Origin: Dehalococcoidia bacterium
GTDB lineage: Bacteria; Chloroflexota; Dehalococcoidia; Bin125
Assembly (NCBI GenBank): GCA_965218115.1
Contig: OZ244584.1
Location: 867,835 to 931,834 of the forward strand
Length of the DNA stretch: 64,000 nucleotides
Direction of reading: 5' to 3'
Part shown: piece by piece, positions 3,386 to 60,184 of the stretch
How the letters are laid out: every line of letters starts with the position of its first letter
How positions within the stretch are numbered: position 1 is the first letter of the stretch
The notes under the pieces: generated by a model
Database searches by the model: none
The model's input: the letters and a program-made list of their open reading frames with translations, nothing else
What the model was told of the DNA's origin: nothing
Position numbers and translations under genes: made by a program

Positions 3386-3461
3386 TGGTGGGCCGGGCTG
3401 GATTCGAACCAGCGACCGAGCGGTTATGAGCCGCCTGCTCTGACCCCTGAGCTACCGGCCC
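3386..3461 (-). tRNA. tRNA-Met (anticodon CAT) with encoded CCA
   Basis: Reverse complement GGGCCGGTAGCTCAGGGGTCAGAGCAGGCGGCTCATAACCGCTCGGTCGCTGGTTCGAATCCAGCCCGGCCCACCA folds as a cloverleaf: 7-bp acceptor stem, GCTC/GAGC D-stem, CTCATAA anticodon loop, GCTGG-TTCGAATC-CCAGC T-arm, discriminator A, CCA. Confidence 0.9.
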
Positions 3462-7650: not shown

Positions 7651-7770
7651 CCCCGCTGACCACATTGAGTGGTCAGCGGAATCTGGATCCGGATCGGATT
7701 CCGTCGAGCACTCAATGTGCTCAACGGGGGGGAGATGTCACGGAGTGACAGAGGGGGGCTCCCCACGCCC
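7651..7770. repeat. cluster of hairpin repeat modules (two copies of module D in opposite orientation, plus module C)
   Basis: CCGCTGACCACATTGAGTGGTCAGCGG and CCGTCGAGCACTCAATGTGCTCAACGG are each perfect 11-bp-stem/5-nt-loop palindromes; GGGGGGAGATGTCACGGAGTGACAGAGGGGGGCTCC recurs elsewhere. Sits between convergent glpD and copA. Confidence 0.85.
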
Positions 7771-11973: not shown

Positions 11974-12417
11974 CGAGCTGTGATCTAGATGCTGCGCTTC
12001 TGTATCTCGACCGCAGGGCCGGGCGGGCGCTTTGGTGCGCGGCGCGGCGGCGGCGGTCTGATCGGTGCGGGGCTCGCGCCCCGACGAGGCTCTCTCGATC
12101 CAGCGGGTTTCTTCTCAGCCATGTCTGCATTCTACAGACCTGCGCCGCCGACTTGCTGCTCGGCAGGGCGAGCGATGATCGAGGGAGGCGAAGTGCGCGG
12201 AGGTCGGGCGCTGACGAACCAGACGCGCAGGGCGGCGCAGGCGAAGACGATCGTCCAGCCCAGTATCAACGCCTCGGAAGCACGTGCACCGCCAACACAC
12301 GCCGCCGCGCCGCCTACAAATGCGATTCCGTGTCAGCCAATCGCGCCCGTGCCACTGCACCGCCGCAACCCGCGGAGTCTACCCTTCGACCGACCATTTT
12401 CCCGAAGGGAGTTCGTC

Positions 12418-13557
12418 ATGACCACAGGCACGACGCGCCGCACCGGCTGGGTCTATCACGAGGCCTATATGTGGCACGACCCCGGCCGCATGCGCGCATT
12501 CGATCCCTCGATGCGGCGCTGGCTGCAGGCCTGGGAGCACTATGAGAACCCCGAGACCAAGCGCCGGCTCAACAACCTGCTGGAGTACGTGGACTTCAGC
12601 GAGGAGCTGGTCCCGCTGAAGCCGCGGGCAGCCAACTTCGAGCAGGTCACGCGCTTCCACACGCCCGAGTATTTCGAGAAGATCCGCGAGATGAGCGAGG
12701 CCGATGGCGGCGAGAGCGGCGAAGGCGCCACCTTCAGCCACGGCGGCTTCGAGATCGCCCTGCTCGCCGCCGGCGGCACGATCACCGCGGTCGACGCGGT
12801 GCTTGACCGCGAGATCGACAACGCCTACGCGCTCGTGCGACCGCCCGGGCACCACGCCGAGCGCGACCGCGGGCGTGGCTTCTGCATCTTCGGCAACGTG
12901 GCGATCGCCGGGATGCACGCGCTCGCCGATCGCGGTCTCGCCCGGATCGCGACGCTGGACTGGGACGTGCACCACGGCAACGGCACCCAACAGGCGTTCT
13001 ACGACCGCAACGACGCGCTGACCATGTCGATCCACCAGGACCAGTGGTACCCGCGCGACTCCGGCGCGATGCACGAGACCGGTGAGGACGACGGCGACGG
13101 CTACAACATCAACATCCCGCTGCCGCCGGGCTCGGGACACGGCGCGTATGTCGCGACGATCGAGCAGGTGGTCGTGCCGGCACTGCGGGCGTTCAAGCCG
13201 GACCTGATCCTGGTGCCCTCGGGCTTCGACGGCGGCATGTACGACCCGCTGGGGCGGATGATGGCCTACAGCGAGACGTTCCGCGAGATGACGGGGCTGC
13301 TGATGGAGGCGGCCGACGAGCTCTGCGAAGGGCGACTCGTGCTCTCGCACGAGGGCGGCTACTCGCCGACCTATGTGCCGTTCTGCGGACTCGCAGTCGT
13401 CGAGGAGCTAAGCGGCAAGACCTCCGGCGCGGCCGACCCAATGGGCGACAACGCCGCAGGCGCCGGCGGTCAGGATCTACAGCCGCACCAGCAAGCGCGA
13501 ATCTCCGAGGCCGCCACGATGGTCGCCCGCCTGCGGTCAATGGAGGGCCTCAGCTAG
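12418..13557 (+). CDS. histone deacetylase-family amidohydrolase (acetylpolyamine/acetoin-utilisation type)
   Basis: RPPGHHAE, GFCIFGNVAIA, DWDVHHGNGTQ motifs of the arginase/deacetylase superfamily. Start at 12418 preceded by gaagggag RBS; the ORF-track start at 11989 is rejected. Confidence 0.8.
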   Translation: MTTGTTRRTGWVYHEAYMWHDPGRMRAFDPSMRRWLQAWEHYENPETKRRLNNLLEYVDFSEELVPLKPRAANFEQVTRFHTPEYFEKIREMSEADGGESGEGATFSHGGFEIALLAAGGTITAVDAVLDREIDNAYALVRPPGHHAERDRGRGFCIFGNVAIAGMHALADRGLARIATLDWDVHHGNGTQQAFYDRNDALTMSIHQDQWYPRDSGAMHETGEDDGDGYNINIPLPPGSGHGAYVATIEQVVVPALRAFKPDLILVPSGFDGGMYDPLGRMMAYSETFREMTGLLMEAADELCEGRLVLSHEGGYSPTYVPFCGLAVVEELSGKTSGAADPMGDNAAGAGGQDLQPHQQARISEAATMVARLRSMEGLS

Positions 13558-13579: not shown

Positions 13580-14215
13580 CCAAAATCGCTCCCCCCGAGG
13601 GGGAGCTGTCGCGCAGCGACTGAGGGGGAGGCTCCCAAGCCCGTGAGCTCGCAACCCGCCAAACACTCCCCGCTCTGCCTTCAACAGCTCCCCCCGAAGA
13701 GACCTGCGCGTAATCCCCATTTCCCCTCTCCCCCCGCTCCGCGGGGGAGATGCCGCAGCCTGCCCCAGCGCAGGCACGGGGCAGACGGGAAGAGCGCCGC
13801 GGTCAGCGGTGGTCATCGCGGGCCTCTCCCGCCGTCATTCCTGCGCCTCCCCCGCCGTCATTCCTGCGCAGGCAGGAATCCATGCGACCGCCCAACAACC
13901 CTTGACGCCTCGGCGCTCTCGACGTTCCACCGACGGATCGAACGCGCGCGTTGGGCGATCAAGCGCCGTCGGACGATCGACGCCCCTGCGATGCCCTCAG
14001 ATCGCCTGGATTCCTGCCTGCGCAGGAATGACGGAGGGTTGCGAGTGGCGCGAGTCATTGAGCTGGTCGGGCATGCGGACTTCGGAGTCGATGGTGACCG
14101 TTCGCCCCCACCAGCGCCCTGTGCGTTGATCCTCAACACAGTCGCTCAGTCGCTGTGCAACAGCTCCCCCGCCGGGGGAGCGATTCCGTCTGATCGTTCG
14201 GCCGCCACGACTCCG
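13580..14215. repeat. composite repeat cluster (modules B, E/C, two half-copies of the A terminus, a full MITE-like element A, module F)
   Basis: CGCTCCCCCCGAGGGGGAGCTGTCGCGCAGCGACTGAGGGGGAGGC (B). Element A spans 13838-14037 with termini CCCTCCGTCATTCCTGCGCAGGCAGGAATCCATGCGA / TCGCCTGGATTCCTGCCTGCGCAGGAATGACGGAGGG. Convergent junction HDAC(+)/rSAM(-). Confidence 0.85.
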
Positions 14216-14377: not shown

Positions 14378-15676
14378 TCAACAGAACCAGGCCTCCGTCA
14401 GGCCGGGAACATGCTGCGGGCCCGGTGGCGCGTCGGGCCACGGCGCGGCATTCAGCCGCTCGCACGCGATCTGCTTGACGGCGGCGAAGACCTGCGCGCT
14501 CGTCGCACCTTCGGCCCGTTCGACCAGCGCCGCGAGCTCCGCTTGCAGCGCGTCCATGCGCGGATCGGGGTGACGCCACTGCCAGATCAGGCCGTCCTCG
14601 TCGAACTCTCGAAGCCAGCCGGCCGCGCGAATCGGGGACACCAACGGCGAGGCGGGCGGCACCAGCAGTCGCAGGCCAAGCTGCACGGGCGGTACCGCAG
14701 CGATGATCGCGTGCTGCTCAATGAAGCGAAGCAGCGCGAGGTAGTCGTCACTTGACGTCCAGGGAGTGAAGGGCAGCCAGGTGGGACGGAGCGCGATTCC
14801 CGCGTCGGCGACCAGGCCGAGCGCCGAACCGACATCGGCCGCGCTGTGGCCTTTGTCGAGCACGGTCAGCAGCTGATCCTCAACGGACTCGAACGCCGAG
14901 GTGATGAACGTGACGCCGAGATCGGACAGCGTGGGCAGCAGTTCGCGGTGATCGAGCAGGTGCTCGACCTTGATCGTGACGTCGAATGTCAGCTCCGCGT
15001 GGCGTCCCCGCGCTGCTTCGAGCAGTTCCAGCCCGTATCCGGGCGCGTTGAAGAAATCGGGATCGCCCAAGGTGATATGGCGAGCGCCCATCGCGGCCTG
15101 TTGGTCGATGTCGCCGAGCACCGATTCGGCGCCGTTGAGCCGCAGGCGGCCGGCGTAGACCGGCGTGATCGGGCAGTGGGTACAGCGATGAGCGCAGCCG
15201 CGCGAGGCCTCGGCGTAGCCGGACAACTCGAACTCGCCTTCGCGGCCGTGATAACGCGCGTAGGCGTCAAGCGGCGGTAGGCCGGAGCGATCGGGGACGC
15301 CGCGCGGATCACGGTCGAACGCGATTCCCGCGGGAGCGTCGCCGCGGGCCAGCGCCAACAGCTGGCCGTCGGTGTCGCCGGTCAGGGTGCGTCCGGGGAT
15401 GCCCATCGCACCGAGGCCGTAGAGCACGACCTTGTCCCCGAGGCCGCGCTGCCGGAGTTGCCGCGAGAGCGCCAGCCCGAGTCGTGCGGCGGTGTGCATC
15501 GGGGTCGAGACGGCGATCAGGCCGGCCCACTCGTAGGCGGATTCGTCGGCCGGTTCGACGGAGAGGTCGAGCGTCCGCACATCGTGGCCGTCGGCGCGCA
15601 GCACTACAGCAGGCGCCGCCAGCCCAAGCGGCTGGTGGCCCTGTTCGTAGGTGTTGATCAGCAGAACGCGGCTCAC
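14378..15676 (-). CDS. B12-binding-domain radical SAM protein
   Basis: CAHRCTHC (CxxxCxxC) cluster after an N-terminal B12-binding-like region. GTG start with aggatga RBS. Confidence 0.7.
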   Translation of the reverse strand: MSRVLLINTYEQGHQPLGLAAPAVVLRADGHDVRTLDLSVEPADESAYEWAGLIAVSTPMHTAARLGLALSRQLRQRGLGDKVVLYGLGAMGIPGRTLTGDTDGQLLALARGDAPAGIAFDRDPRGVPDRSGLPPLDAYARYHGREGEFELSGYAEASRGCAHRCTHCPITPVYAGRLRLNGAESVLGDIDQQAAMGARHITLGDPDFFNAPGYGLELLEAARGRHAELTFDVTIKVEHLLDHRELLPTLSDLGVTFITSAFESVEDQLLTVLDKGHSAADVGSALGLVADAGIALRPTWLPFTPWTSSDDYLALLRFIEQHAIIAAVPPVQLGLRLLVPPASPLVSPIRAAGWLREFDEDGLIWQWRHPDPRMDALQAELAALVERAEGATSAQVFAAVKQIACERLNAAPWPDAPPGPQHVPGLTEAWFC

Positions 15677-15800: not shown

Positions 15801-17012
15801 ATGTCTGACCGCGCTGATATCGACCGGCTCGTCGATGTGATTCGCCGCATCGGAGCCATTGACGGCGAGCTGCTCGAGCTCCGGGAAACCAAGCACCTTT
15901 TGACTCTGCTCGAGCCCGGTGAGATGCCGGCGCGAATTGCGGCCAGCCCGAACGGCGTTGTTGTAGCAACCGATCGTCGCCTGATCGTTGTGAGCGGTGG
16001 CGGGGCAGGAGAGCCCAGCGCATTGGTTCACTCGTTTCGCTTCGGCAGCGTCAGGGAGGTACGGCTCGTTGGCTCCGACGTTGTGGAGGTCGACGCGGAA
16101 AGGGCGCGGATCTCGTTCACCATGCCCCGAAGCCATCGGACCGCGATAACCGAATACCTCCAGAGTCAACATGGTGTCGAGGTCGACCCATCACCCGTCG
16201 CAAGAGAAGACATCGAGCCCTTGACAGACGCAGCTAGGGGCGAACCTGCTGACGACACGAGTCCCCTGAGCCTCGAGCAGCGCACCGCTCGACTCAGGAA
16301 GTTGGGCGTCAAGCCGAACCCCGAGTCCAACGGCGTTGCGACTGCTCTGTTCGTCGTCGGGTTCATCGTGGGTGCGGTGTTGACTTGGGTGGTGGATGTC
16401 GGCCCGTGGGCGTTTGGGATCGCTTGGGTGCTTGCAGGTGCATCTTTCATCGTGGTCCTCGCGGGGATGGAAGATACCGAATCCGCGGTCCGCAGAGAAG
16501 AACTAGCTCACGGCCTTGAAACAGCCCCGCGCCAGAACGAGAGACCGCGTCAGTCGGGCTTGGGGCTAGGGCTGGTGTCAGGCGTCGTGGGCATCATCAT
16601 CCTCAGCCTCGTGATAGGGCTCGCTGGAACCGACGACGATCGAGGTGCGCCAGCCCGTTCGAGTGGCGGCTCGCTGGCGTCGTCGGCCACCCCATCAGGC
16701 TGGTCGCTGAGCAGATGCATCGAATATGGCGAGGAGATACAAGCGCGGATCTTGCATGTCGGCGTCAATAGTGGGTTGGTGACGGAAGCAGCCGATCGGG
16801 GAGACGGTGCGTCGGCCGTCCACCTCTGGGATAGACAAATCGAGCCGAGCTGGCGCTGGCTTGACACCGGAATCCCGCGATTCGAGCAAAACTGCCAAGT
16901 TCACGCGCCGTCGGCCGTCGACGTAGCCAGCAGTGGTTGGCGCGACGAGCTCCGGCCCGCTCTCCGCAACGCTGAGAAGCGCGTCGATGAGCTGCGAGCG
17001 GCTCTGCGCTGA
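15801..17012 (+). CDS. membrane protein with N-terminal bacterial PH (bPH_2-like) domain, paralog 1
   Basis: N-terminus LLEPGEMPARIAASPNGVVVATDRRLIVV...FRFGSVREV fits the bPH fold; 3 predicted TM helices; C-terminal extracytoplasmic region. Lower GC (about 60%). Confidence 0.6.
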   Translation: MSDRADIDRLVDVIRRIGAIDGELLELRETKHLLTLLEPGEMPARIAASPNGVVVATDRRLIVVSGGGAGEPSALVHSFRFGSVREVRLVGSDVVEVDAERARISFTMPRSHRTAITEYLQSQHGVEVDPSPVAREDIEPLTDAARGEPADDTSPLSLEQRTARLRKLGVKPNPESNGVATALFVVGFIVGAVLTWVVDVGPWAFGIAWVLAGASFIVVLAGMEDTESAVRREELAHGLETAPRQNERPRQSGLGLGLVSGVVGIIILSLVIGLAGTDDDRGAPARSSGGSLASSATPSGWSLSRCIEYGEEIQARILHVGVNSGLVTEAADRGDGASAVHLWDRQIEPSWRWLDTGIPRFEQNCQVHAPSAVDVASSGWRDELRPALRNAEKRVDELRAALR

Positions 17013-17447
17013 ACGCACACTTGGCCCCTCGCGACCCCACACCGCTGCGCCAGGTACGATCGCGGGTGGAGCCCGATTGCCCGGATCGAACGAGGTGCGC
17101 CGAGCTGTGCATAGCAGCGCGGATCGTGAGCTGGTGATCCGGTCCGATCTACCATCGGATAGTCACCCCTCCATGCTCGGCGGCCCTCGCGGGGCCGCCG
17201 CGAGATGACAGACCAGCTTGCCCGCATCCTTCTCCTCGTGTGTTCAACAGACAGACAATCCGCGCAGATGGCGCTATATTGCGCCACGGCTTGCTGCGAT
17301 CTGGCAACGCGGATCGGTATCCATTGATGATACGGGTTAGGGGATACGGGTCGCGTCCATCCGTCGCACAGCCGGGTGGCCAGAAGGCCTGAGCCGCTGC
17401 CTAGCTGGCACACACGCGAGTGCTGTCGACGAAGAACGAGGCGCGAT

Positions 17448-18533
17448 ATGCGCGACGAGATCGGCACCGACCAACTCATCGCTGCCGTGCGGCGAATCGA
17501 GGAGATCGACCAGGGTCTGCTCGATCTGCCAGAAACCAAGCATCTTCTGACAGTGCTAGAGCCCGGCGAGCTTCCGGAGGAGATCGCCAGCGGCTCACAT
17601 GTCGTCGCCACCGCAACCGGTCGCCGGCTGATTGTCGTGCGGCGGAGCCGAACAGGTAGTTCTATTGCGAGTGTCCAGTCGTTGTCGTTCGACGGCATCG
17701 AGAGAGTCCGATCCGTCGGAACGTTGGGGATCGAGATCCGCATCGAAGGCCGACGCACATCGTTCATCTTGCTCGAACAGCGCCGCAATCGCCTACTGGC
17801 ATACCTCAGGCGCAGACTCGGCGATTCCGCGGCCGATCCGTCACGCGCTGTGGCGCACGCCAACCCACGACCCGAAGCGAGAGGCGACAAGCCCATCGCT
17901 GGGGTGGGATCTCTGAGCCTGGATGAGCGAACCAAGCGATTGATGGACGCGGGCGTTCAGCCGAGTCCCAACGCCAACGGCCGCGCATTCGCTCTGTTTG
18001 TCATTGGGTTCGTTGTGAGCGCGGTGTTGAATTGGGTGGTGGATGTCGGCCCATGGCTGTACGGAATCGCTTGGACCCTCACAGGCGCATCGATGATCGC
18101 GTTCGTCGCGTCGCAGGAAGATATGGAGACAGCGGTGCGCAGGGAGGAAGTGGCTCTCGGGCTTGAATCGGCCTCGCGGACGGACGAGCGACCGGGCAAG
18201 CCGGGCTTGAGGGCGGGTGCGGTAGCGGTCGCCGTCGGAATCATCGTTCTTGGCATTGTCGTCGTCGCTGGCGGCTCAGACGGGTCGCCGGCCGACAGTT
18301 CCGGCTCGCGCCCCGTGAGCAGTGGCAACCTGCCTGGAACCATCGTGACCATTCGCAACTGCGCTGACGTCGATCGACTAATTGACAGGTACAGCCGGAG
18401 TGATGGGGGCGACGCGTTTGTGTACCGCGCGGGCGGACGGAGCTATCTGGTCAAAAACACCGGAGACATCCCGGACTTGGTGAACACGCCCTGGAAGAGC
18501 CTGTACTGGTACGCCTACGACATGTCGTGCTGA
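17448..18533 (+). CDS. membrane protein with N-terminal bacterial PH (bPH_2-like) domain, paralog 2
   Basis: Same architecture and clear similarity to 15801-17012 (LLDLPETKHLLTVLEPGELPEEIASGSHVVATATGRRLIVV; matching TM region LFVIGFVVSAVLNWVVDVGPW). Start moved to ATG 17448. Confidence 0.6.
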   Translation: MRDEIGTDQLIAAVRRIEEIDQGLLDLPETKHLLTVLEPGELPEEIASGSHVVATATGRRLIVVRRSRTGSSIASVQSLSFDGIERVRSVGTLGIEIRIEGRRTSFILLEQRRNRLLAYLRRRLGDSAADPSRAVAHANPRPEARGDKPIAGVGSLSLDERTKRLMDAGVQPSPNANGRAFALFVIGFVVSAVLNWVVDVGPWLYGIAWTLTGASMIAFVASQEDMETAVRREEVALGLESASRTDERPGKPGLRAGAVAVAVGIIVLGIVVVAGGSDGSPADSSGSRPVSSGNLPGTIVTIRNCADVDRLIDRYSRSDGGDAFVYRAGGRSYLVKNTGDIPDLVNTPWKSLYWYAYDMSC

Positions 18534-23764: not shown

Positions 23765-24050
23765 CAGAAATCGCTCCCCCCGAGGGGGAGCTGTCGCGCA
23801 GCGACTGAGGGGGAGGCCCGCACTGAGTTCCGCTGACCGTGGCGCTCTCCCCCTCTGCCCCCTGCCTGCGCAGGGGCAGGCTGCGGCATCTCCCCCGCAG
23901 GAGACGTGCGCGTAATCTCCATTTCCCCTCTCCCCCCGCGGAGCGGGGGGAGATGCCGCAGGCAGAGGGGGGCTCCGCGCGCGCGCGCACCACATAGCAG
24001 AAGCTCCCCACCGTCACTCCGTGACATCGCCCCCGCCCCGCGGGGGGAGA
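23765..24050. repeat. composite repeat cluster (modules B, inverted C', E, C', H)
   Basis: Same module series as 60185-60560 in related order. Convergent junction. Confidence 0.85.
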
Positions 24051-27426: not shown

Positions 27427-27735
27427 GAATCCGATTCCCAACCGCTCCCCCCGCGGGGGAGCTGTCGCGCAGCGACTGAGGGGGAGGCCCGCGCCCGCAT
27501 CGGCTGACCGCGACCCACCCCCGCTTGTACGTTCGCGCCGGCTCGGGAGCTCTCCGTTCGGCATCTCCTCCCGCTGACCACATTGAGTGGTCAGCGGAAT
27601 CCGATTCCCAATCGCTCCCCCCGAGGGGGAGCTGTCGCGCAGCGACTGAGGGGGAGGCCCGCGCCCGCATCGGCTGACCGCGACGCACTCCCGCCTGCAT
27701 GTTCGCGCTGGCTCGGGAGCTCCCCCCGCCCCCCG
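27427..27735. repeat. tandem duplication (~170-bp period) of a module-B-containing unit with a module-D hairpin between the two units
   Basis: GAATCCGATTCCCAA(C/T)CGCTCCCCCCG...GCTCGGGAGCTC occurs twice (27427-27587 and 27596-27722), separated by CCGCTGACCACATTGAGTGGTCAGCGG. Convergent junction with sppA. Confidence 0.85.
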
Positions 27736-28704: not shown

Positions 28705-29082
28705 GTGGCCGAAGTTGCAGTGTGTGCGCTGAGCGAGCTGCCGCCCGGATCGGTCACGGCGGCCGAGATCGAGGGCCAGCGGGTCTGCGTCGCGAACGTG
28801 CACGGCGAGGTGTTCGCAGTGCAGGACAAGTGCCCACACCTGTTCGCGCCGCTTTCAGTCGGCGCGCTCAAGGGCTCGCACATCGTCTGCCCCTGGCACG
28901 ACTCCGAGTTCGACATGCGATCGGGCCAGACGAAGAAGTGGCTGCCGACCGGGATGTGGAACACGATCCACAAGCTGATGCCGCCGCCGCCAGGCTTCAT
29001 CAAGCGAAAAATCGAGCCGGACGAGATCCGCACCTTCCGGACCCGAGTCTCAAACGAAACCGTCTACATCTCCGACGACTGA
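28705..29082 (+). CDS. Rieske [2Fe-2S] domain ferredoxin
   Basis: CPHLF...CPWH Rieske ligand motifs. Confidence 0.85.
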   Translation: MAEVAVCALSELPPGSVTAAEIEGQRVCVANVHGEVFAVQDKCPHLFAPLSVGALKGSHIVCPWHDSEFDMRSGQTKKWLPTGMWNTIHKLMPPPPGFIKRKIEPDEIRTFRTRVSNETVYISDD

Positions 29083-29174: not shown

Positions 29175-29560
29175 CATTCTCTCCCCCCGCCTCGCGGGGG
29201 GAGATGAGTGACAGAGCAACTGTGTTGAGGATCAACTCAGTCGACGCGGTTGGGGCCCTGTCCGTCATTCCTGCGCAGGCAGGAATCCATGCGGCCGCCC
29301 CACCGTGCGACGAGCCTCCATCCGCCCGACGGCCCACCGAAGCCCGCGCGGACCGCGCGTGATCGGGCGCCGTCGTACATTGGGAGTGCCCTCGACCCCC
29401 ACAGATCGCCTGGATTCCTGCCTGCGCAGGAATGACGGAGGGGTGCACGAATGACGCACGGGTGCAGGAATGACGCAGGGGGCGCCGGTCTGCCGCACCC
29501 AGGTTCGACTCAGAAACCAGCAGCTTCCGAGCCAGCGCGAACATACAAGGGGAGCCGCGT
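29175..29560. repeat. composite repeat cluster (module C variant, inverted module F, MITE-like element A at ~29259-29445, module G)
   Basis: Element A termini present on both sides; its internal sequence is nearly identical to the copies at 42105-42295 and 59205-59400. Confidence 0.85.
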
Positions 29561-29605: not shown

Positions 29606-30415
29606 TCAGAACCCCTTGAACACAGGCTCACGCTTCTCCGAGAAGGCCTTCGGCCCCTCGATCGCGTCCTGCGTGGACCTCGCGATCACCATCGCGTGGT
29701 CGGCCATCTCGAGCGCCTCATGGAGGCCCGTGACGGCTGACCGATAAGCGAGCCGCTTGATCAGCTGCACCGAGACGGCGGGCATCTTGCAGATGTCGTT
29801 GGCGAAATCGAGGGTCTGTTCCATCAGCTCCTCGCCGGGCACGACCCGCGTCACGTAGCCCATCGCGAGCGCTTCCTCGGCGTTGAAGATCCGGCCGGTC
29901 CACATCAGTTCGAGCGCCTTGGACATGCCGACGATGCGCGGCAGGTAGTAGGCGCCGCCGTCGCCCGGGATCAGCGCCATCCGGACGTAGGCCATGCCGT
30001 ACTTGGCGCGCTCGGAACTGAAGCGCAGGTCGGCCATCGAGGCCATGTCCATGCCGGCCCCGACAGCCGCGCCGTTGACCGCCGCGATGTACGGCTTCTC
30101 CATGTTGAACAGCGCGCGCGGGACGCGCTGGACGGAGTTGCGCAGGCTGTTGCGATTGGCGGCGGGGGCGTTCGGGTCGCCGCCCAGCACGTCGGCGCCG
30201 GCGCGTTCACGCGAGACGTCCGCGCCGGAGCAGAAGCCTCGGCCGGCGCCGGTGACGATCACCACGCGCACGCCCTGGTCCTGGCTGGCGTTGGTGATGT
30301 AGCCCTGCCAGAGCTCGAGCATCTCATTGCTGAACGCGTTCAGCTTCTCTGGGCGGTTGAGGGTGATGATCCCGACATGCCCCTGCACGTCGTACAGAAC
30401 TGCGTCGTCGCTCAT
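29606..30415 (-). CDS. enoyl-CoA hydratase/isomerase family protein
   Basis: Crotonase fold motifs (VVIVTGAGRGFCSGADV; AAVNGAAVGAGMDMA). Confidence 0.85.
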   Translation of the reverse strand: MSDDAVLYDVQGHVGIITLNRPEKLNAFSNEMLELWQGYITNASQDQGVRVVIVTGAGRGFCSGADVSRERAGADVLGGDPNAPAANRNSLRNSVQRVPRALFNMEKPYIAAVNGAAVGAGMDMASMADLRFSSERAKYGMAYVRMALIPGDGGAYYLPRIVGMSKALELMWTGRIFNAEEALAMGYVTRVVPGEELMEQTLDFANDICKMPAVSVQLIKRLAYRSAVTGLHEALEMADHAMVIARSTQDAIEGPKAFSEKREPVFKGF

Positions 30416-31355: not shown

Positions 31356-32612
31356 TCAGGGTAACGGCTGGCTGCCTGTAGACCTGCGGTGAACACCGAT
31401 CAGCGCGATCAGCAACAGCAGCGTGACGAAGTTGACCGCGGCGATCGCCATCAGCGCAGGCCCATAGTTCTCCGTCGCGTCGCGCAGCAGACCGGCGGCG
31501 AACGGCCCGATCGCCAGCGCCACGTTGCCGATCGCCGTCTGCACCGCCATCAGCGTGCCGAGTCGGCGCAGCCCGAACGTGTCGGACGCGATCAGACCCT
31601 GCAGCGGCATGGTCTGTCCCCAGACCAGCCCGGCGATGATCGCTGAGACGTAGATCCAGTACAGCGGCCCGGCCGCGAGCAGGGCGATCGTGCCGAACAG
31701 CATCACCGCGTAGCCGACGCCGAGCGCGGGCCGCAGTCCGAGGAAGGCAGCCATCGGTCCGATCAGGGCGCGGCCGGGGATCGACAAGAAGCTGCGCAGG
31801 CCGGTCAGGTAGCCACCCGCCGTCAGCGAGAGGCCTGCGGCGGTCGCTGCGGGCACAAAGTGGTTGAGCAGCGCGCCCAGGCCGAACGAGGAGACCGCCA
31901 CCACCGCCAGCATCAACAGCACTTCGGGGGAACGCAGCGCCTCTCGGACCGTGCCGTAGCCCGCGCGAGGCGCGTTCCGCGACGGTCCCGGCGCCGCCGC
32001 GTCGCTGGAGGCCGGTATCGGGGGCAGCCGCCGCACCGTCAAGAGGGCCGGGATCACGAGCGCCGCCGAAAGCGCCAGCAGAATTCGAACAGCCCAGCGC
32101 CAGCCCAACTCGTCCGTCAGCAGTCCGGTCAGGGGCATGAACAGCACCGCCGAGAAGCCGCCGGTGGTGACGAGCACGGACATCGCGGCGATCTGGCGGC
32201 GCGGGTAGAGCCTCGCGGTGATCGGCATCGTGACGTTGTAGAAGAGGCCGGCGATGGTGATCGCGCCGCCGGCGCCCCAGAGCGGGATGAAGAGCCAGAC
32301 GCTGCCGGCGAACGAGGCGGCGACCAGCAGGCCGGTGCCGCCGATCAGGCCGACAGCGAGCACAGGCCGCGGTCCGATCGAATCGAGCACGCGCCCCGAG
32401 ACGATGCTCGCGGCTGCGCCGAGCAGGTACGAGGCCATAAAGGCGGCGTTGGTCGCGCCCGAGGACCAGCCCTCCTCCTCCTGAATCGGCCCCGCGATGA
32501 TCCCGAAGCCATAGAGCACGAGTCCGTAAGCGCCGATCGTCAAGACGCCGAGGAGCACCGCGGGCCACCAGGTACCCAGCCAGTCGCTCACTCGGGCTTG
32601 CAGCAGGGGCAT
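31356..32612 (-). CDS. MFS transporter
   Basis: 12 predicted TM helices with an MFS-like loop pattern; 418 aa. Confidence 0.75.
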   Translation of the reverse strand: MPLLQARVSDWLGTWWPAVLLGVLTIGAYGLVLYGFGIIAGPIQEEEGWSSGATNAAFMASYLLGAAASIVSGRVLDSIGPRPVLAVGLIGGTGLLVAASFAGSVWLFIPLWGAGGAITIAGLFYNVTMPITARLYPRRQIAAMSVLVTTGGFSAVLFMPLTGLLTDELGWRWAVRILLALSAALVIPALLTVRRLPPIPASSDAAAPGPSRNAPRAGYGTVREALRSPEVLLMLAVVAVSSFGLGALLNHFVPAATAAGLSLTAGGYLTGLRSFLSIPGRALIGPMAAFLGLRPALGVGYAVMLFGTIALLAAGPLYWIYVSAIIAGLVWGQTMPLQGLIASDTFGLRRLGTLMAVQTAIGNVALAIGPFAAGLLRDATENYGPALMAIAAVNFVTLLLLIALIGVHRRSTGSQPLP

Positions 32613-32639
32613 CGCAGCAGGCTACGCGGCCCCCGTGTC

Positions 32640-33980
32640 CATCCACGCGAGATCGGCTCCACACACCCCGGAGTTGCGCGCCTCCGCCCCCTCCGTTATC
32701 CCTCCGCCCTCTCCGTCACTCCCGCGCCCCCTCCGTCATCCCTCCGCCTCCTCCGTCATTCCTCCGCGCCCGCCTCCGTCATTCCCGCCCGCTCTCGGTC
32801 ATTTCCTCCCGGTTTCCGTCCTTCCTGCTCCCCCTCGGCCCTTCCTACGCCCGCTCTCCGCCATTCCTGCTACCCCTCCGCCCTTCCTGCGCCCCCCCCC
32901 CGCCATTCCCGAGTCCCCCTCCCTCATTCCCGCGCCCCTCCCTCATTTCCGCACCCTCTCCGTCATCCCCGCGCCCGCTCCGTCATTCCTGCACCCCTTC
33001 CCGTCACTCCTGCACCCCCTCCGTCATTCCTGCGCAGGCAGGAATCCATGCGAGCTGCGTGGGTTCGAGAACAGCGCCGATGCTGGACGGCCTCCCGTAC
33101 GTCCGAGCCCCCCCCCTCCGGCGGCTTCGTGGCCCGCTGGCGGGATCGAGGCGTCAGGCAGCCTGCAGCAGGGGCATCGGAGCAGGCCAGGTGCAGCCGG
33201 TGTCCATGCAGGCGGGATCCGTTCGACACACCTCGGCGTTGCGCGCATGCCCCCCTCCGTCATTCCCGCGCCGCTCTCCGTCATTCCCGCGCCCCCCCCC
33301 CGCCATCCCTGCGCCCCCTCCGTCATTCCCGCGCCCCCTCGCCATCCCTCCGCCCCCTCCGTCATCCCTCCGCCCTCTCCGTCATCCCTCCGCCCTCTCC
33401 GTCATTCCTGCACCCCCCCCGTCGTTCCTGCGCCCCCCCCTCCGTCATTCCTGCGCAGGCAGGAATCCATGCGAGCTGCGTGGGTTCAAGAACAGCGCCG
33501 ATGCTGGACGGCCTCGCGTACGTCCGAGCACCCCCTCCGGCGGCTTCGTGGTCCGCTGGCGGGACGCAGGCGTCAGGCAGCCTGCAGCAGGGGCATCGGA
33601 GCAGACCAGGTGGAGCCCATGACCATGCAACAGGCGAGATCGGTTCGACCCACTTCCGGGTTGCGCGCATCCGCCCCCCCTCCGTCACTCCTGCGCCCCT
33701 TCCCGTCATTCCTGCGCAGGCAGGAATCCATGCGAGCTGCGTCGATTCGAGAACAGCGCCGATGCTGGACGGCCTCCCGTAGGTCCGAGCGCCCCCTCCG
33801 GCGGCTTCGTGGCCCGCCGGCGGGATGGAGGCGTCGGAGGGACCTGGGTCGTCGGTTGGATTCCTGCCTGCGCGGGAACGGCGGAGTGGGGCGGACGGGA
33901 TGACGAAGTGATGGACGGAGGAGCGATGTTGGACGAGGGCGCGCCTACGACTCAATCCGAGAGATGCGCGATACGCTGCG
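32640..33980. repeat. 1.3-kb repeat-dense region: degenerate ~21-bp tandem array (CCCTCCGTCATTCCTGCGCCC, about 15 or more units) followed by three ~250-430-bp higher-order units each carrying a module-A hairpin terminus
   Basis: GTCATTCCTGCGCAGGCAGGAATCCATGCGAGCTGCGTGGGTTCGAGAACAGCGCCGATGCTGGACGGCCTCCCGTACGTCCGAGC appears at ~33027, ~33457 and ~33707. Lies between the divergent MFS and PTPS-like genes. Confidence 0.8.
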
Positions 33981-36765: not shown

Positions 36766-36944
36766 AGGCCGACTCGCCCTCGCGAACGTTGGAGGTAAGT
36801 TCGCAGTGCAACACGTCGCCGGCAGCGGCGTCGCGTGGGCAGCGGAATTCGACCGAACAGCCGGCGACGCCGCAGCGCATGCATGAGCTGAGCATCGATG
36901 AGTTCGGGGGCGACCAACTCGGCCTCACCGAGCATTGGGGAGGC

Positions 36945-37070
36945 TCTGAATATCTCTCCCCCCGCGGGGGGGAGATGTCACGGAGTGACAGAGGGGGGCC
37001 GCTCCGCAACGGGTCGCCGCCCCCCTCCGCCTTCGCCATCTCCCCCCGCCTTGCGGGGGGAGATGGGATC
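36945..37070. repeat. repeat cluster: module C plus the perfect palindrome CCATCTCCCCCCGCCTTGCGGGGGGAGATGG
   Basis: Convergent junction between the hydrolase (+) and the RHH gene (-). Confidence 0.85.
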
Positions 37071-37164
37071 TGATTTGTTCAGAGCGCTCGTAGCGCGGCT
37101 CTCCGACCGAGCGGTGTACGGAGGAGGTGCTCAACTGCTGCCGATGCGTCGATGACGTATCGCC

Positions 37165-37404
37165 TCACTCGTAGCCGAGCTCTCGGTCGCGCTCCGCTCG
37201 TCCGTCCTCGATCAGCTGCGCGCCTGAGACGCCGATATCAATGCTCGGCAGTTCGCGCAGCCGGCGGTCGAACTCTCGCCGCGTGAGTTCTCGCTCGATG
37301 GCTTCGAGGACGATCGAGCGGATGGTCTTGCCCGTGCGCGCGGCTTCTGCGCGCAGCTCCTCGTGGAACTGCTCCGGAACGTTCCTGACCTGAAGATTGC
37401 TCAT
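37165..37404 (-). CDS. ribbon-helix-helix DNA-binding protein (FitA/VapB-type antitoxin-like)
   Basis: MSNLQVRNVPEQFHEELRAEAARTGKTIRSIVLEAIEREL is a classic RHH N-terminus. Its ATG overlaps the stop of the upstream radical SAM gene (TAATG). Confidence 0.65.
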   Translation of the reverse strand: MSNLQVRNVPEQFHEELRAEAARTGKTIRSIVLEAIERELTRREFDRRLRELPSIDIGVSGAQLIEDGRAERDRELGYE

Positions 37405-38240
37405 TACATCAGAATAGCATCGGCGCTCGGAGTCCGCAGCCTCGAGCCGAACAGCCAGTCGGGGTCGAAACCGCTGCGGCCTTCGCGGAGGTTGGGGAGC
37501 ATCCGGGCGAGGATCTCGCGCGAGGATTCGTACGCGGCGTCGTCCCAGCCGAGCTCGGCGGCCTGGCCGAGCGCTTCGGGGCGGGTGCCGCCGCTGAAGT
37601 GTCCGCGCGGCGGTTGGAAGCGTTCGACGACGAAGCGCTGCGCGCCCGTGCCGATGACCTGCTCCGCGAAGCCGGCGGGGTCGTCAAGCGGGAGCAGTGG
37701 GGTCATCGTCACGGCGCTGGGAATGCCGGCAGCGGCGATCTCGCTAATCGCCGCGAGCCGGGCCGGAATCGGTGGACAGGTCGGCTCCCAGATGCGCCGG
37801 GTCGCTTCCGAGTCGGTCGTGACGGTCATGTTCACGCAGACGGCCTCGAACCGCCGGAGCAGCTCAATGTCGCGGGTGACGAGCGGGCTGCGCGTCTGGA
37901 CCGTGAGATGGGCGCCGCGCTCGGCCAGGATCGCGAGGATCTCGCGGACGAGGCCGAGGCGGCGCTCAATTGGCAGGTACGGGTCGGTGGCGCTGCTGAG
38001 GTAGATGCGCTTGCCGCGGAGGTCGCGCCGCAGGCGGCGGACTTTGTCAACGGCGTTCTGCTTGACGAGCAGCCATTCGCCCCAGGCCTGCCGGCGCTCG
38101 GGGGTGTGGAAGGCGGCGGCGTAGCAGTAGGAGCAGCCGAAGCTGCAACCCCGCCACGGGTTGAGCGAGTAGTCATAGGCCGCGAGGTAGCCGCCGGCGG
38201 GGGTGAGGATGTGGCGGGCGTCGTAGAACTCGGTGCGCAT
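37404..38240 (-). CDS. radical SAM protein, spore-photoproduct-lyase-like (COG1533 DNA repair photolyase family)
   Basis: CSFGCSYC CxxxCxxC motif near the N-terminus; 278 aa. Confidence 0.65.
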   Translation of the reverse strand: MRTEFYDARHILTPAGGYLAAYDYSLNPWRGCSFGCSYCYAAAFHTPERRQAWGEWLLVKQNAVDKVRRLRRDLRGKRIYLSSATDPYLPIERRLGLVREILAILAERGAHLTVQTRSPLVTRDIELLRRFEAVCVNMTVTTDSEATRRIWEPTCPPIPARLAAISEIAAAGIPSAVTMTPLLPLDDPAGFAEQVIGTGAQRFVVERFQPPRGHFSGGTRPEALGQAAELGWDDAAYESSREILARMLPNLREGRSGFDPDWLFGSRLRTPSADAILM

Positions 38241-40894: not shown

Positions 40895-41869
40895 ATGCGA
40901 CGTTTCGCGGCGCAGACGATCGATGCGGTCTTCTTCCGCTGGCAGGTGCACGCGGCGCAGCTGCGTCGGCGCACGACCTGGCCGCTGCCCGAAGACATCG
41001 ACCGGCTGCGGACGCGATCGTGGCGCGTTCCCTGGATGGGCGACCCGGGGCCGCCGGACGTGTCGCTGCTGGAGGTGGAGGACGTCCGGCGGTTCGAGTT
41101 CGCGTCATCGGAGCCGTTCGCGCAGCGCCATGACCAGGTCGCGGGCGGGCGGCTCTATGAGCCGCAGGGGACGCCGCGCGGCGCGGTCGTGCTGGTGCCC
41201 GGCGCGCTGACCGGCGCGCCATGGAACGGCGCCGAGCGGCTCTACCCCCGCGTGGCGGAGGCGTTCACGGCTCTGGGGCTGGTCGCGGCCCGGATCGAGC
41301 TGCCGCTGCACGAGAGTCGCGCCCCGGCGGGCGAGATCTCGGGCCACGAGATGTTTCAGGGCGACCTGTTCACCTACGTGCGTGCGGTGGCGCAGGCGGT
41401 GCGCGATGTGCGCTCGCTGGCGGTCTGGCTGCGCAACGAGTACGGATCGGTCGGCGTCTGGGGCCTGAGCATCGGCGCACTGATCGCGGCGCTGGCGGCC
41501 GAGCGCGACGCGCGGCTGGCATGGGCGGTACTGGCGCAGCCCACGATCCGCGCGGGCTCGGCGTGGGGATCGCCGATAACAGCGCCGATGCGCGAGCACA
41601 TGCAGGCGAGCGGCGTGACGCGCGAGGAGGTGGAGATGGTCCTGCACGGCCTCGCGCCCGTCGGCCCGCCGGCGCTCGGCGCATCGCGCGTGTTGCTACA
41701 GGGCGGCCGCTGGGATCGTCTCGCGACCGCGGAGAGTCTGGCCGAGCTCGGACGCCGCTGGCCAGGCGCCGAAGTAAGGCTCTATGACGGCGGCCACATC
41801 TCGATGGCGATCAGGAATCAGTGGTTAGAGGACGGCTCCGAGTTCATCGCCCGCTTGCCCGGAGCGTAG
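40895..41869 (+). CDS. alpha/beta hydrolase-fold protein
   Basis: GLSIGA nucleophile elbow and overall pattern; start uncertain. Confidence 0.55.
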   Translation: MRRFAAQTIDAVFFRWQVHAAQLRRRTTWPLPEDIDRLRTRSWRVPWMGDPGPPDVSLLEVEDVRRFEFASSEPFAQRHDQVAGGRLYEPQGTPRGAVVLVPGALTGAPWNGAERLYPRVAEAFTALGLVAARIELPLHESRAPAGEISGHEMFQGDLFTYVRAVAQAVRDVRSLAVWLRNEYGSVGVWGLSIGALIAALAAERDARLAWAVLAQPTIRAGSAWGSPITAPMREHMQASGVTREEVEMVLHGLAPVGPPALGASRVLLQGGRWDRLATAESLAELGRRWPGAEVRLYDGGHISMAIRNQWLEDGSEFIARLPGA

Positions 41870-41894: not shown

Positions 41895-42548
41895 CTCTCC
41901 CCGCTCCGCGGGGGGGTCGGAAATCGCTCCCCCCGAGGGGGAGCTGTCGCGCAGCGACTGAGGGGGAGGCCCGCGCTGACCTCCGCTGACCGCGCCCCTC
42001 TCCCCCCGCAAAGCGGGGGGAGATGTCACGAAGTGACAGAGGGGGGCCCGCCCCGGACCAAATACGCCACGCCGCTGCGTCCGGTCTGCAGACCCCGTCC
42101 GTCACACCCGCCCCTTCCGTCATTCCTGCGCAGGCAGGAATCCATGCGACCGCCCAACCGTGCGACGAGCCTCCAACCGCCCGACGGACCACCAGAGCCC
42201 CAGCGCACCGCGCGTGACCGAACGCCGTCGAACATTGGGAGTGCCCTTGACCCCCACAGACCGCATGGATTCCTGCCTGCGCAGGAATGACGGAGGCGGC
42301 GCAAAAGTGACGCGGGGATCGGTCTGCCGCACCCCGGTTCGACTCAGCCACCAACGGCTCCCGATCCAGCGCGAACATACAAAGGGGGGCCCGCCCGCGC
42401 CGCACCAGATACGCCACGCCGCTGCGTCGGCGCTGCAGACCCCCTCCTCTGCCTCCGGCATCTCCCCCCGCAGGAGACCTGCGGGTGATCCTACGAATCC
42501 CCTCTCCCCCCGCAAAGCGGGGGGAGATGTCACGGAGTGACAGAGGGG
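41895..42548. repeat. composite repeat cluster (modules B, C, MITE-like element A at ~42105-42295, G, E, C)
   Basis: Convergent junction between the hydrolase (+) and hflX (-). Confidence 0.85.
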
Positions 42549-42554
42549 GGCCGC

Positions 42555-43751
42555 CTAGCTGGACGCCCCGTTGAGCACCCGCCCATGAACGACCTGGATG
42601 CTGGGCAGAGTCGGGATGATCTGCGAGATCGAGGCTCTCAAGCCATCGAGATTTTCGCCGGTTTCAGCGGACACCGGGATACCCACGCCGGTGGTGGGAG
42701 CCGCGCCCTCAAGTAGGTCGATCTTGTTGAGCACGGTGATCGTCGGTCTCGTGTCGACACCGAGCTCGGCGAGCGTGGCATGGACCGCCTCGGCCTGTTC
42801 GACGGCGTCCGGGTGGGTGGCGTCAACGACGTGCAGCAGCAGGTCGGCCTCGAGCAGCTCTTCGAGCGTCGCGCGGAATGCGGCCACGAGCTGGGTCGGC
42901 AGCTTCTGGATGAAACCCACGGTGTCGGACAGCAGCACCGTGTGGACATCGTCGAGCCGGCAGCGCCGCGTGGTCGGGTCGAGCGTTTCGAAGAGTCGGT
43001 TCCGAGCGGGAACCTTGGCCGCAGTCAGCGCGTTCATCAGCGTGCTCTTGCCGGCGTTCGTGTAGCCGACCAGGGCGACGAGCGGAATCCCCGCGCGGTC
43101 GCGCTGCTGGCGCTGCTCGTGGCGATGCGTGCGGACACGCTCGAGGTCCCTCTTGAGCCGCTTGATCTGATTGCGGATCAGCCGCCGGTCGGTTTCCAGC
43201 TGGGTCTCGCCCGGACCGCGCGAGCCGATCGCGCCCTCCATGCGCTCGAGGTGCTCCCACTGGCCGGCCAGCCGCGGCAGCAGGTATTCGTGCTGCGCGA
43301 GCGCGACCTGGACCGCGCCTTCGCGGGTTCTCGCGCGCTGGGCGAAGATGTCGAGAATCAGCGCGGTGCGGTCGATGATCTTGCAGTCGAGGCGCTTTTC
43401 GAGGTTGCGCTGCTGCGAGGGCGTGAGCTCGTCATCGCAGATCACGACGGTGGCCCGGAGGTCGTCGCGCATGGCCGCGATCTCGTCCAGCTTGCCCTTG
43501 CCGATCCAGGAGCGCGGGTCGGGCTGCGGGCGTCGTTGGATCACGCGGGCAAGCGGCACCGCGCCGGCGGTCTCGGCAAGCTGCGCGAGCTCGTCGACCG
43601 AGGCTTCAGCGTTCCAGTGGTTGGCGCGGCGGGAATCGACGCAGAGCAGGATCGCGCGTTCGCGCGGCGGGCGGGTCGGGTGATGGTTGCGGCGTCCGCC
43701 GCGGTTGCGAATGCGTGGAATTGCAGTCTCCGTCGCTACGCCCGCCCGCAT
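42555..43751 (-). CDS. hflX: GTPase HflX
   Basis: G1 GYTNAGKST, DTVGF, NKID motifs and an HflX N-terminal domain. Confidence 0.85.
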   Translation of the reverse strand: MRAGVATETAIPRIRNRGGRRNHHPTRPPRERAILLCVDSRRANHWNAEASVDELAQLAETAGAVPLARVIQRRPQPDPRSWIGKGKLDEIAAMRDDLRATVVICDDELTPSQQRNLEKRLDCKIIDRTALILDIFAQRARTREGAVQVALAQHEYLLPRLAGQWEHLERMEGAIGSRGPGETQLETDRRLIRNQIKRLKRDLERVRTHRHEQRQQRDRAGIPLVALVGYTNAGKSTLMNALTAAKVPARNRLFETLDPTTRRCRLDDVHTVLLSDTVGFIQKLPTQLVAAFRATLEELLEADLLLHVVDATHPDAVEQAEAVHATLAELGVDTRPTITVLNKIDLLEGAAPTTGVGIPVSAETGENLDGLRASISQIIPTLPSIQVVHGRVLNGASS

Positions 43752-43927
43752 CGGAGCACGCAGCCGGGCGCGATTCAGTCTAGCCAGTGGGGCGTGACGG
43801 AAACTAAATGCGCATGTCCCAGCTCAACTCCTTCGGCAGAGGCGCAGCGGTGCGTCCAGATTCGGCTACCCAGTGTAGCCGCACCCGCGACGGATCTGCC
43901 GGGGAGCCTACCGGGCCTACCGGCGCG

Positions 43928-60041: not shown

Positions 60042-60184
60042 ACATGCACATTGCCTCAGCCCGCGCCGACTGTCCACCGATTCGCGCGAACTAAACTGGA
60101 ATCGTCGAATAGACGTGACGGAACAGTCGAAGCGCTCCTCCACGGATCCTCTGAACAAGTCGGATCCCCCTGACCACCCAATGT

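Follow-up and report, generated by a model that had tools for sequence, protein, structure and literature searches.

A 64,000-nucleotide stretch of a Dehalococcoidia bacterium chromosome (GCA_965218115.1, contig OZ244584.1, positions 867,835 to 931,834; hereafter the window) carries several copies of a short non-coding unit bounded by inverted hairpin termini, and these units are the subject of this study. The window has a GC content of ~68-70%. Genes were called from GC content at third codon positions (GC3) together with Pfam matches, and no transposase was found among the 18 window open reading frames (ORFs) scanned against Pfam. Four full units (copies 1 to 4, Table 1) are all intergenic, and each is located between convergent housekeeping genes. 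A further site that is rich in partial termini (the array locus, 32681-33886) sits between the MFS gene and a queD-like gene, which are divergent. The intergenic DNA is mosaic: besides the units, it holds two smaller modules and two or more further families of abundant double-hairpin repeats.

Table 1. Units, partial termini, neighbouring genes and other features of the window.
Feature	Position	Strand	Remarks
Copy 1	13855-14034	+	left terminus 13855-13887, right terminus 14003-14034; diverged core
Copy 2	29261-29439	+	doublet unit, A-type core
Copy 3	42116-42294	+	doublet unit, A-type core
Copy 4	59223-59397	+	doublet unit, A-type core; right terminus with one loop mismatch
Fifth full unit, B-type	33703-33886	+	left terminus 33703-33735; degenerate right terminus ATTCCTGCCTGCGCGGGAAC at 33860-33879
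Single direct half-site CCGTCATTCCTGCGC	13832-13846	+	23 bp upstream of copy 1 left terminus
Two degenerate inverted half-sites, GCACGAATGACGCAC and GCAGGAATGACGCAG	29440-29480	-	outside copy 2 right terminus
Half-site array, 17.4 direct 20-bp units, consensus CCCCCTCCGTCATTCCTGCG	32681-33035	+	leads into full left terminus 33021-33053
Second half-site array, 10.1 x 20 bp	33251-33456	+	leads into full left terminus 33442-33474
One direct half-site unit CCCCCTCCGTCATTCCTGCG	59197-59216	+	upstream of copy 4
Module X (GGTCTGCCGCACCC..GGTTCGACTCAG..CAGCGCGAACATACAA)	29481-29553	+	separate repeat; also after copy 3 (42315-42387), partly after copy 4
Neighbours of copy 1: HDAC-like; radical-SAM	11989-13557; 14378-15676	+; -	convergent
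Neighbours of copy 2: Rieske; enoyl-CoA hydratase	28705-29082; 29606-30415	+; -	convergent
Neighbours of copy 3: ABHD18-like; hflX	40895-41869; 42555-43751	+; -	convergent
Neighbours of copy 4: purS; hisB	58647-58937; 59454-60158	+; -	convergent
Double-hairpin family TCTCCCCCCGC-N3-4-GCGGGGGGAGATGTCACGGAGTGACAGAGGGGGGCC	7712-7766, 23925-23978, 36947-37006, 41995-42048, 42499-42552, 58944-59082, 59130-59170, 60400-60453		often right after stop codons
Second repeat family CGCTCCCCCCGAGGGGGAGCTGTCGCGCAGCGACTGAGGGGGAGGCC	13583-13637, 23768-23822, 27439-27493, 27609-27663, 41921-41975		89-100% identity
tRNA-Met (CAT) gene	3386-3461	-	
Ribbon-helix-helix antitoxin-like ORF	37165-37404	-	small; weak FitA/ParD matches below Pfam cut-offs

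When the window was scanned with the 20-mer ATTCCTGCGCAGGCAGGAAT, 12 occurrences with up to 3 mismatches were obtained, compared with 0.01 expected from shuffles. Refinement of the bounds by extending end-to-end complementarity gave four full units of 175-180 bp in a single shared orientation, with inverted ends of 28-33 nt that contain 0-2 mismatches. Every terminus includes the hairpin ATTCCTGC-GCAG-GCAGGAAT with an 8-bp stem, and is laid out as CGTC, the hairpin, and CCA. The cores between the hairpins are non-coding and ~115-125 nt long. Those of copies 2-4 share 88-92% identity pairwise, whereas the termini are essentially invariant (~100%), and the core of copy 1 is ~60% identical to the others. 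An earlier sequence-only reading had described a ~190-bp element with inverted ends in at least four full copies, a GCAG-loop hairpin in each terminus, and a diverged core in the copy at 13838, all of which we confirm. The sites it gave are right, although its coordinates are 5-20 bp too wide and include a flanking half-site, and the near-identical internal sequence reported for copies 2-4 does not agree with the identities measured here. The solo and half termini that it listed are real as well, and correspond to the half-site beside copy 1, a degenerate right end at 33852-33893, and the two 20-bp arrays of the array locus.

Folded as single-stranded DNA (ssDNA), a single terminus has a free energy of -7.7 kcal/mol (z -2.5). 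The whole unit, calculated for copy 3, folds via its inverted ends into a 33-bp stem (-67 kcal/mol, z -10), such that two inverted hairpins form one longer hairpin, as in REPINs. Both folds greatly exceed those of shuffled sequences in stability. No target-site duplications were found at the four units, where junction direct repeats span just 0-1 nt, and the flanks of the units are themselves inverted (CCTC/CGTCATT...AATGACG/GAGG). The inverted ends of 28-33 nt are thus unaccompanied by the duplications that go with terminal inverted repeats in a classical MITE (a miniature transposable element with inverted repeats).

Two readings of the core were tried and rejected. The first was a structured RNA: RNAalifold, applied to five copies, recovered nothing besides the stem of the inverted ends and a CGACGG/CCGTCG helix that does not vary. 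Double changes occurred at three pairs, each of them due to the diverged copy 1, with an unfavourable covariation term. The second was a leftover of an ssn nuclease gene, to which the core showed no similarity at the protein level. A terminator scan at copy 3 gave no matches, and Rfam at gathering threshold identified the tRNA alone in the window.

Half-sites constitute the second conspicuous feature of the region. The 15-mer CCGTCATTCCTGCGC occurs 33 times with up to 2 mismatches (0.4 expected), and all of these occurrences lie within five loci. The array unit is made up of a few bases 5' of the hairpin and the left arm, as far as the apex of the loop. The unique sequence that precedes the first half-site unit at copy 4 ends with CCTGCG, the hexamer that also ends the unit, and in the orthologous array of a related genome (locus L116) the outer flank has GCG, again matching the unit end. 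This microhomology between flank and unit end, combined with units that end at the loop apex, is the mark that slipped-strand duplication leaves when replication stalls at the loop, and it counts as indirect evidence of hairpin extrusion in vivo.

Within the array locus, a tandem duplication of ~419 bp (32851-33717) contains the second array and a copy of the MFS gene upstream region. Comparison of 32596-32734 with 33161-33299 and 33580-33660 showed that this upstream region was duplicated together with the first codons of the gene. The B-type unit at this locus has a core with a weak relationship to core A in reverse complement (z 3.8). Module X was considered as a part of the element and ruled out, as it is absent after copy 1 and after a further copy in a related chromosome (locus L036, described below).

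The hairpin itself resembles a repeat that is known from Neisseria. Chenal et al. (Nat Commun 2025; PMC11893778) reported that the Neisseria NTS, CGTCATTCCCGCGMAVGCGGGAATCYRG, contains the dRS3 repeat and that SsnA, a 94-aa GIY-YIG nuclease without RNA binding, binds NTS solely as ssDNA and cuts a few nucleotides upstream. In mutagenesis, the positions that proved critical were the GTC preceding the stem on its 5' side and the C that follows the palindrome, and similar hairpins, named Ssn-related motifs (SRMs), flank ssn homologues in many bacteria, with binding and cleavage biochemistry available for four enzymes from Neisseria and Wolbachia (PMC11893778). The terminus in the window, CGTCATTCCTGCGCAGGCAGGAATCCAT, is identical to NTS at 25 of 28 positions, and two of the three differences form a compensated stem pair in which C:G is replaced by T:A. 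All of these critical bases are retained, and the terminus has the oriented hairpin of an SRM, namely a 5' CGTC, a palindromic stem ATTCCc..gGGAAT and a 3' C. The strict dRS3 string ATTCCCN8GGGAAT is not matched owing to the C-to-T and G-to-A change. By sequence, then, the ends are recognizable as a variant of NTS/dRS3 with one stem pair changed from C:G to T:A, residing in a Dehalococcoidia chromosome.

The arrangement of the hairpins is also that of a Neisseria repeat. Neisseria intergenic mosaic elements (NIMEs) are composed of 20-bp inverted repeats ATTCC-N-GGAAT around repeat sequences of 19-214 bp (dRS3-RS-dRS3), and have been said to be unobserved outside Neisseria (Bentley et al. 2007, PMC1797815). 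In the window, pairs of ATTCCTGC-N4-GCAGGAAT surround cores of 115-125 nt at mosaic sites that vary between relatives. Moreover, two related loci, L117 (11336-11412) and L118 (11337-11413), carry a 77-bp doublet whose left arm, CGTCATTCCCGCGAAGGCGGGAATCCAG, matches the N. meningitidis NTS consensus at 28 of 28 positions. Hairpins of the canonical C-type and of the T-type therefore coexist in this clade.

Syntenic loci in relatives were found via homologues of hflX, enoyl-CoA hydratase and the radical-SAM gene, with ~90-93% nucleotide identity, and the window as a whole is syntenic with the Dehalococcoidia chromosome OZ253504.1, a metagenome-assembled genome (MAG), at ~90-92%. Every orthologous site compared differs by presence, absence or rearrangement. 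Copy 1 is missing in L140, where the window is ~520 bp longer and the extra DNA is bordered on both sides by another repeat family. Copy 2 is missing in L121 and also in L122, a more distant relative. The ~330-400 bp that the window has in addition contain the unit with its half-sites as well as two other modules, all inserted within a unit of yet another repeat. In the intergenic region of copy 3, L117 and L118 carry the 77-bp canonical doublet, and the remaining spacer cannot be aligned. Copy 4 is present in L116 in rearranged form, with a duplicated purS 3' end inside and an interrupted right terminus.

The array locus offers the most striking comparison, as the 1157-bp block of the window (32703-33860) is represented in L117 by one perfect palindrome, CTCCGTCATTCCTGC-GCAG-GCAGGAATGACGGAG (free energy -19, z -7.7), and L122 has nothing at this position. 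Such a palindrome is exactly what deletion between the 8-bp direct repeats GCAGGAAT of two termini would be expected to produce. It could equally be a landing site, and the data leave the direction of the event unpolarised. A full A-type unit is also found elsewhere in OZ253504.1 (L036), with a core that is 91-92% identical to the window copies. Since this core is as close to the window cores as these are to each other, the family is older than these species and its sites turn over, with no sign of a recent burst.

Several neighbouring observations concern the other repeats at these sites. Diverged relatives of CGCTCCCCCCGAGGGGGAGCTGTCGCGCAGCGACTGAGGGGGAGGCC, with the form CTCCCC..GGGGGAGCTG, border the ~520-bp block of copy 1, and L140 has a single such unit there. 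The repeat unit interrupted by the block that carries copy 2 belongs to the TCTCCCCCCGC/GCGGGGGGAGATGTCACGGAGTGACAGAGGGGGGCC family, which also occurs in L036, L116 and L121 and is unrelated to the NTS hairpin. A further indel separates the ~100 bp at 43835-43938 of the window from ~2.2 kb with RCC1-repeat genes in L117 (7680-9917).

To place the hairpin in a wider context, the 26-mer GTCATTCCTGCGCAGGCAGGAATCCA was scanned over one genome per species. Exact matches were found in at least 116 loci from more than 10 phyla, including Planctomycetota, Bacteroidota (isolates as well), Chloroflexota, Patescibacteria/candidate phyla radiation, Nitrospirota and others, as well as Alpha-, Beta- and Gammaproteobacteria (Legionella, Pseudomonas, Luteibacter). 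Just the hairpin is common to these loci, and the flanks are unrelated. Viral contigs rarely contain the 26-mer (4 stretches in 2.9 million), and a metagenome scan with the terminus plus CATGCG returned 16 loci, none of them from the lineage of the window, with no extra copies and no autonomous form.

The hairpin is physically linked to GIY-YIG genes. A GIY-YIG profile detected nine genes in the 828 kb of the 116 loci, seven of which lie 20-164 bp from the hairpin; as windows of +/-200 bp around the hairpins make up ~6-7% of this DNA, the binomial P value is ~2e-7. An unbiased scan of the 150 hairpin-nearest ORFs likewise returned GIY-YIG as the top Pfam family, with no transposase families among the top families listed. 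The seven linked proteins are single-domain GIY-YIG proteins of 81-103 aa above the Pfam cut-off, so that the motif and a GIY-YIG gene, a candidate for the cd10448 type, are associated at 7 of 116 loci. A PDB sequence search with one hairpin-flanked GIY-YIG protein gave no match. In Gelatiniphilus marinus (Bacteroidota; L092), candidate division LCP-89 (L024) and Parcubacteria (L058), an inward-facing pair of 26-mers encloses the GIY-YIG gene in units of 423-514 bp.

Doublets and half-sites also recur outside the window. An inverted partner, often with another stem, lies within 200 nt on the CCA side in 35 of 104 hairpin occurrences elsewhere, against 8 occurrences in head-to-head arrangement and, for direct partners, 8 and 3. 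Doublet spacers in these genomes are mostly 14-50 nt, and the units of the window are, as far as their layout tells, long-spacer versions of this general inward-facing doublet. Direct half-sites 18-23 nt upstream accompany 11 of 109 occurrences and extend to at least seven other lineages (Gammaproteobacteria, Alphaproteobacteria, Pirellulaceae, Comamonadaceae, a Berkelbacteria MAG, Caldilineaceae and a related Dehalococcoidia MAG). The Caldilineaceae MAG DAOUCA01 (L003, L004, L017, L023, L030, L048, L054, L056, L057, L059, L062, L090, L110) contains a different, highly repeated element, in which a T-type hairpin doublet with a 24-nt spacer is nested in longer conserved flanks (..TTCGCCAAACCTTGTTTTGGCGGAAATTTCCAGAT..); its presence at many contig ends indicates that it breaks the assembly.

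These comparisons alter how the units should be classified. The sequence-only reading had called them MITE-like and recently mobile. The resemblance stands insofar as the units are short, non-coding, dispersed, bounded by inverted repeats and variable at orthologous sites. Recent mobility is not borne out, as the core of a copy in a different species is no more diverged from the window cores than these are among themselves, and the termini prove to be a hairpin common to many phyla and not sites of a family-specific transposase. Target-site duplications, which that reading had proposed to look for, are absent, and the longer relative it anticipated does exist with the same ends in other phyla, although it encodes a nuclease of ~100 aa of the GIY-YIG family in place of a transposase. 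At sites where relatives have no copy, the additional DNA of the window is a mosaic block of 330-520 bp bounded by other repeat families and not the 180-bp unit alone.

We consider it probable, though by no means certain, that the units are NIME/REPIN-like doublets of Ssn-related hairpins that turn over by hairpin-driven slippage and recombination. The best-supported reading is that they represent, in Chloroflexota, an equivalent of the intergenic mosaic repeats known from Neisseria and not a classical transposon, and they appear to be non-autonomous passengers of a hairpin/nuclease system as opposed to cut-and-paste elements. That the termini are invariant while the cores drift agrees with recognition of the termini by a protein, and suggests that purifying selection or homogenisation acts on these recognition sites and not on the cores.

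A possible course of events can be outlined as follows. The terminus would fold whenever the DNA becomes single-stranded during replication, repair or uptake, and the folded form may be bound by a cognate Ssn-family GIY-YIG nuclease, presumed to be encoded elsewhere in the genome, which would nick a few nucleotides 5' of CGTC by analogy with SsnA on NTS. Hairpins that stall replication and provide dispersed homology could then drive turnover. Slippage at the loop apex may generate half-site arrays of 18-23 bp, slippage between the 8-bp direct repeats GCAGGAAT of two termini may collapse a unit to a single perfect palindrome such as that in L117, and recombination among dispersed repeats may move or delete mosaic blocks. 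Nicks or hairpins could also give rise to tandem duplication of adjacent gene ends. Slippage, collapse and block exchange would together be the way in which the units spread.

Several points weigh against this interpretation. The slippage and recombination steps are deduced from end-products in a few genome comparisons and should be read as such. The cognate Ssn nuclease is assumed for this lineage, with none seen in the ~175 kb available: a hidden Markov model search of the 64-kb window and ~110 kb of related Dehalococcoidia DNA found no GIY-YIG/Ssn gene (nothing below E = 0.04). The role demonstrated so far for Ssn is confined to ssDNA nicking and modulation of transformation, and it is not known to spread its repeats. 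The published SRM pattern, HGTCWYN(0-2)YYVSBRHN(0-5)WNVSBRGN(0-2)RNCYNB, has 0 matches on both strands of the window. By hand comparison, it fails because it excludes T at the 'V' stem position. The pattern was made by hand from 29 genomes of 4 phyla (PMC11893778), and we regard the miss as a limit of such a pattern and not as evidence against kinship. Finally, the same Neisseria repeat has been treated by Bertels & Rainey as a REPIN of a Group 2 RAYT, which leads to the first of four rival explanations. Each of these fails at least one test made here and keeps a low probability.

In a REPIN system, a RAYT (an IS200/IS605-like Y1 HUH enzyme) would recognize the ssDNA hairpin and excise or insert the doublet. 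The geometry of two inverted intergenic hairpins, the lack of target-site duplications and the vertical persistence are all REPIN-like, and the Neisseria 21-mer ATTCCCGCGCAGGCGGGAATC is the sequence that Bertels & Rainey assigned to Group 2. Jackhmmer seeded with E. coli RayT found no homologue among the ORFs of the 116 loci, of the relatives or of the window (~1.1 Mb of locus DNA in addition to the window), and accordingly no RAYT gene flanked by the same REP was seen there. The same DNA holds the nine GIY-YIG genes, seven within 200 bp of a hairpin. The 5' flank of RAYT-associated REPs is GT[AG]G, whereas that of the present hairpin is CGTC. Very divergent homologues could escape the search, and each genome was seen in part; even so, we judge a RAYT-driven origin distinctly unlikely. 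We would also call it rather unlikely, if a little less so, that the units are passive REP/BIME-like palindromes between convergent genes (mRNA-stabilising, terminator-like or sites for nucleoid proteins), spread solely by slippage and general recombination, the lineage having no enzyme dedicated to them. Copies 1-4 each have a convergent pair of housekeeping genes around them and share their mosaics with other REP-like families, the gained or lost blocks are bounded by those families, and the absence of a nuclease gene from the ~175 kb of the lineage accords with this view. Contrarily, 26 nt conserved exactly across more than 10 phyla, compensated stems, and the invariant unpaired GTC and C point to a sequence-specific protein partner. 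A terminator role is at odds with the lack of a U-tract and of a terminator-like match at copy 3, and an RNA-level role with the failure of SsnA to bind RNA (PMC11893778).

Transposition and site-specific recombination fare worse. A classical MITE would be a deletion derivative of an insertion sequence with a DDE transposase, mobilized in trans by a cut-and-paste reaction at the ~33-bp inverted repeats of its ends. Unit size, inverted ends, copy number and absence from orthologous sites in relatives would suit such an element. However, the four units lack target-site duplications, no transposase was found in the window or among the top Pfam families beside the same termini elsewhere, and the same-ended units that could have been an autonomous parent enclose a GIY-YIG nuclease gene and no transposase. 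In other phyla the same termini enclose many short spacers of unrelated sequence, the inserted blocks exceed the unit in size, and half-site arrays are no MITE feature, which together make this origin very unlikely. The least probable of the readings considered is that the sites are target scars of a recombinase, either IS110/Piv-type or phage-encoded, with the arrays being scars of repeated integration and excision. The dRS3 repeat is indeed a documented integration target of a phage-encoded recombinase of Neisseria filamentous phages (PMC11893778; PMC1797815), and the half-site duplications resemble the arrays of partial targets at tRNA attachment sites. Yet no recombinase or prophage was seen beside any window site, the 26-mer is rare in viral contigs, and the array units are just 18-23 bp with nothing between them. 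The outer-flank microhomology of 3-6 nt (CCTGCG in the window, GCG in L116) fits slippage instead.

A bolder variant of the favoured reading, to which we give limited credence although more than to any of these four, is that of 'homing palindromes' that spread without a transposase. Here, a GIY-YIG ssDNA nickase would break DNA beside folded hairpins, and repair would copy units into other hairpin or palindrome sites by hairpin-primed fill-in, template switching and short-homology repair. Half-site arrays and tandem duplications of gene ends would be by-products of this process, and perfect palindromes its footprints or landing sites. As a corollary, the T:A-stem hairpin, base-exact across more than 10 phyla, would mark out an Ssn specificity class of its own, one that spreads horizontally and is missed by the published motif.

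Other features of the window are noted here in their own right. At 58907-59181, the last ~30 nt of purS and the double-hairpin repeat that follows are tandemly duplicated in three copies of ~80-100 bp, such that pseudo-copies of a gene end arise beside hairpin elements; the orthologous region in L116 has the same pieces in another arrangement. Two paralogous ORFs of 403 and 385 aa (15801-17012 and 17376-18533) have no Pfam match and contain predicted membrane segments. They lie in a stretch of lower GC content (63.5%) and share a 300-nt repeat at 72% identity (16266-16565/17913-18212); the DNA is possibly foreign. A tandem duplication of ~480 bp (56842-57791; 87-90% identity) is in the part of the window with the lowest GC content (62%) and lies between an unannotated 554-aa ORF (54875-56539) and purC, and its own ORFs have no Pfam match. 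The segment around the antitoxin-like ORF (36818-37964) is longer in the window than in L117.

The Ssn/NTS system was first described as recently as 2025. Because the published SRM pattern misses the T-type variant, the family is probably under-counted. The relatives examined here provide natural before and after states for any proposed mechanism, such as a palindrome against a 1.1-kb array at one locus and a short canonical against a long doublet at another, and the palindromic site and the half-site arrays, with units that end at the apex of the loop, constrain models of Ssn-repeat multiplication. In Bacteroidota, LCP-89 and Parcubacteria, the GIY-YIG genes enclosed by the exact 26-nt site are candidates for enzymes whose ssDNA specificity is defined and can be tested, with CGTCATTCCTGCGCAGGCAGGAATCCA as the putative site. 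For annotation, these repeats account for spurious ORFs and assembly breaks in such MAGs.

Among known systems, bacterial MITEs such as Correia elements share with the units a size of ~150-200 bp, terminal inverted repeats, a non-coding nature and a dispersed distribution, but here target-site duplications are lacking, the ends are common to many phyla and no transposase-bearing parent was found. REPIN/RAYT systems and the BIMEs of E. coli resemble the units as inverted extragenic hairpin doublets without target-site duplication that persist vertically for long periods and form mosaic clusters. In contrast to REPINs, the associated gene (in other phyla) encodes a GIY-YIG nuclease and not a Y1 HUH transposase, and the 5' flank is CGTC. 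The doublet spacer of ~125 nt in the window also differs from the 14-50 nt typical for hairpin doublets elsewhere.

The likeness to NIMEs extends to the dRS3-RS-dRS3 layout, the intergenic location, the mixture with other repeats and the variability at syntenic positions. NIMEs occur in dynamic clustered arrays (PMC1797815), whereas the window units are mostly isolated between convergent genes in a genome of ~69% GC, and the arrays in the window consist of half-sites, whereas those of NIMEs alternate dRS3 and RS (PMC1797815). The report of Chenal et al., from which the terms 'tandem', 'MITE' and 'NIME' are absent, describes neither half-site arrays nor sites collapsed to a palindrome, nor a core of 125 nt that is conserved (PMC11893778). 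Further differences set the present case apart from NTS and the SRMs: the stem pair is T:A in place of C:G, the host belongs to Dehalococcoidia and not to Pseudomonadati, and no ssn gene was seen in the ~175 kb from the lineage. The shared features are a 28-nt oriented hairpin with 5' CGTC, a stem beginning ATTCC, a C after the palindrome and many intergenic copies (PMC11893778), to which is added the linkage to genes of ~100-aa GIY-YIG proteins, seen here for the 26-mer in other phyla. The units of the window thus add a variant hairpin and a new phylum to a known kind of repeat.

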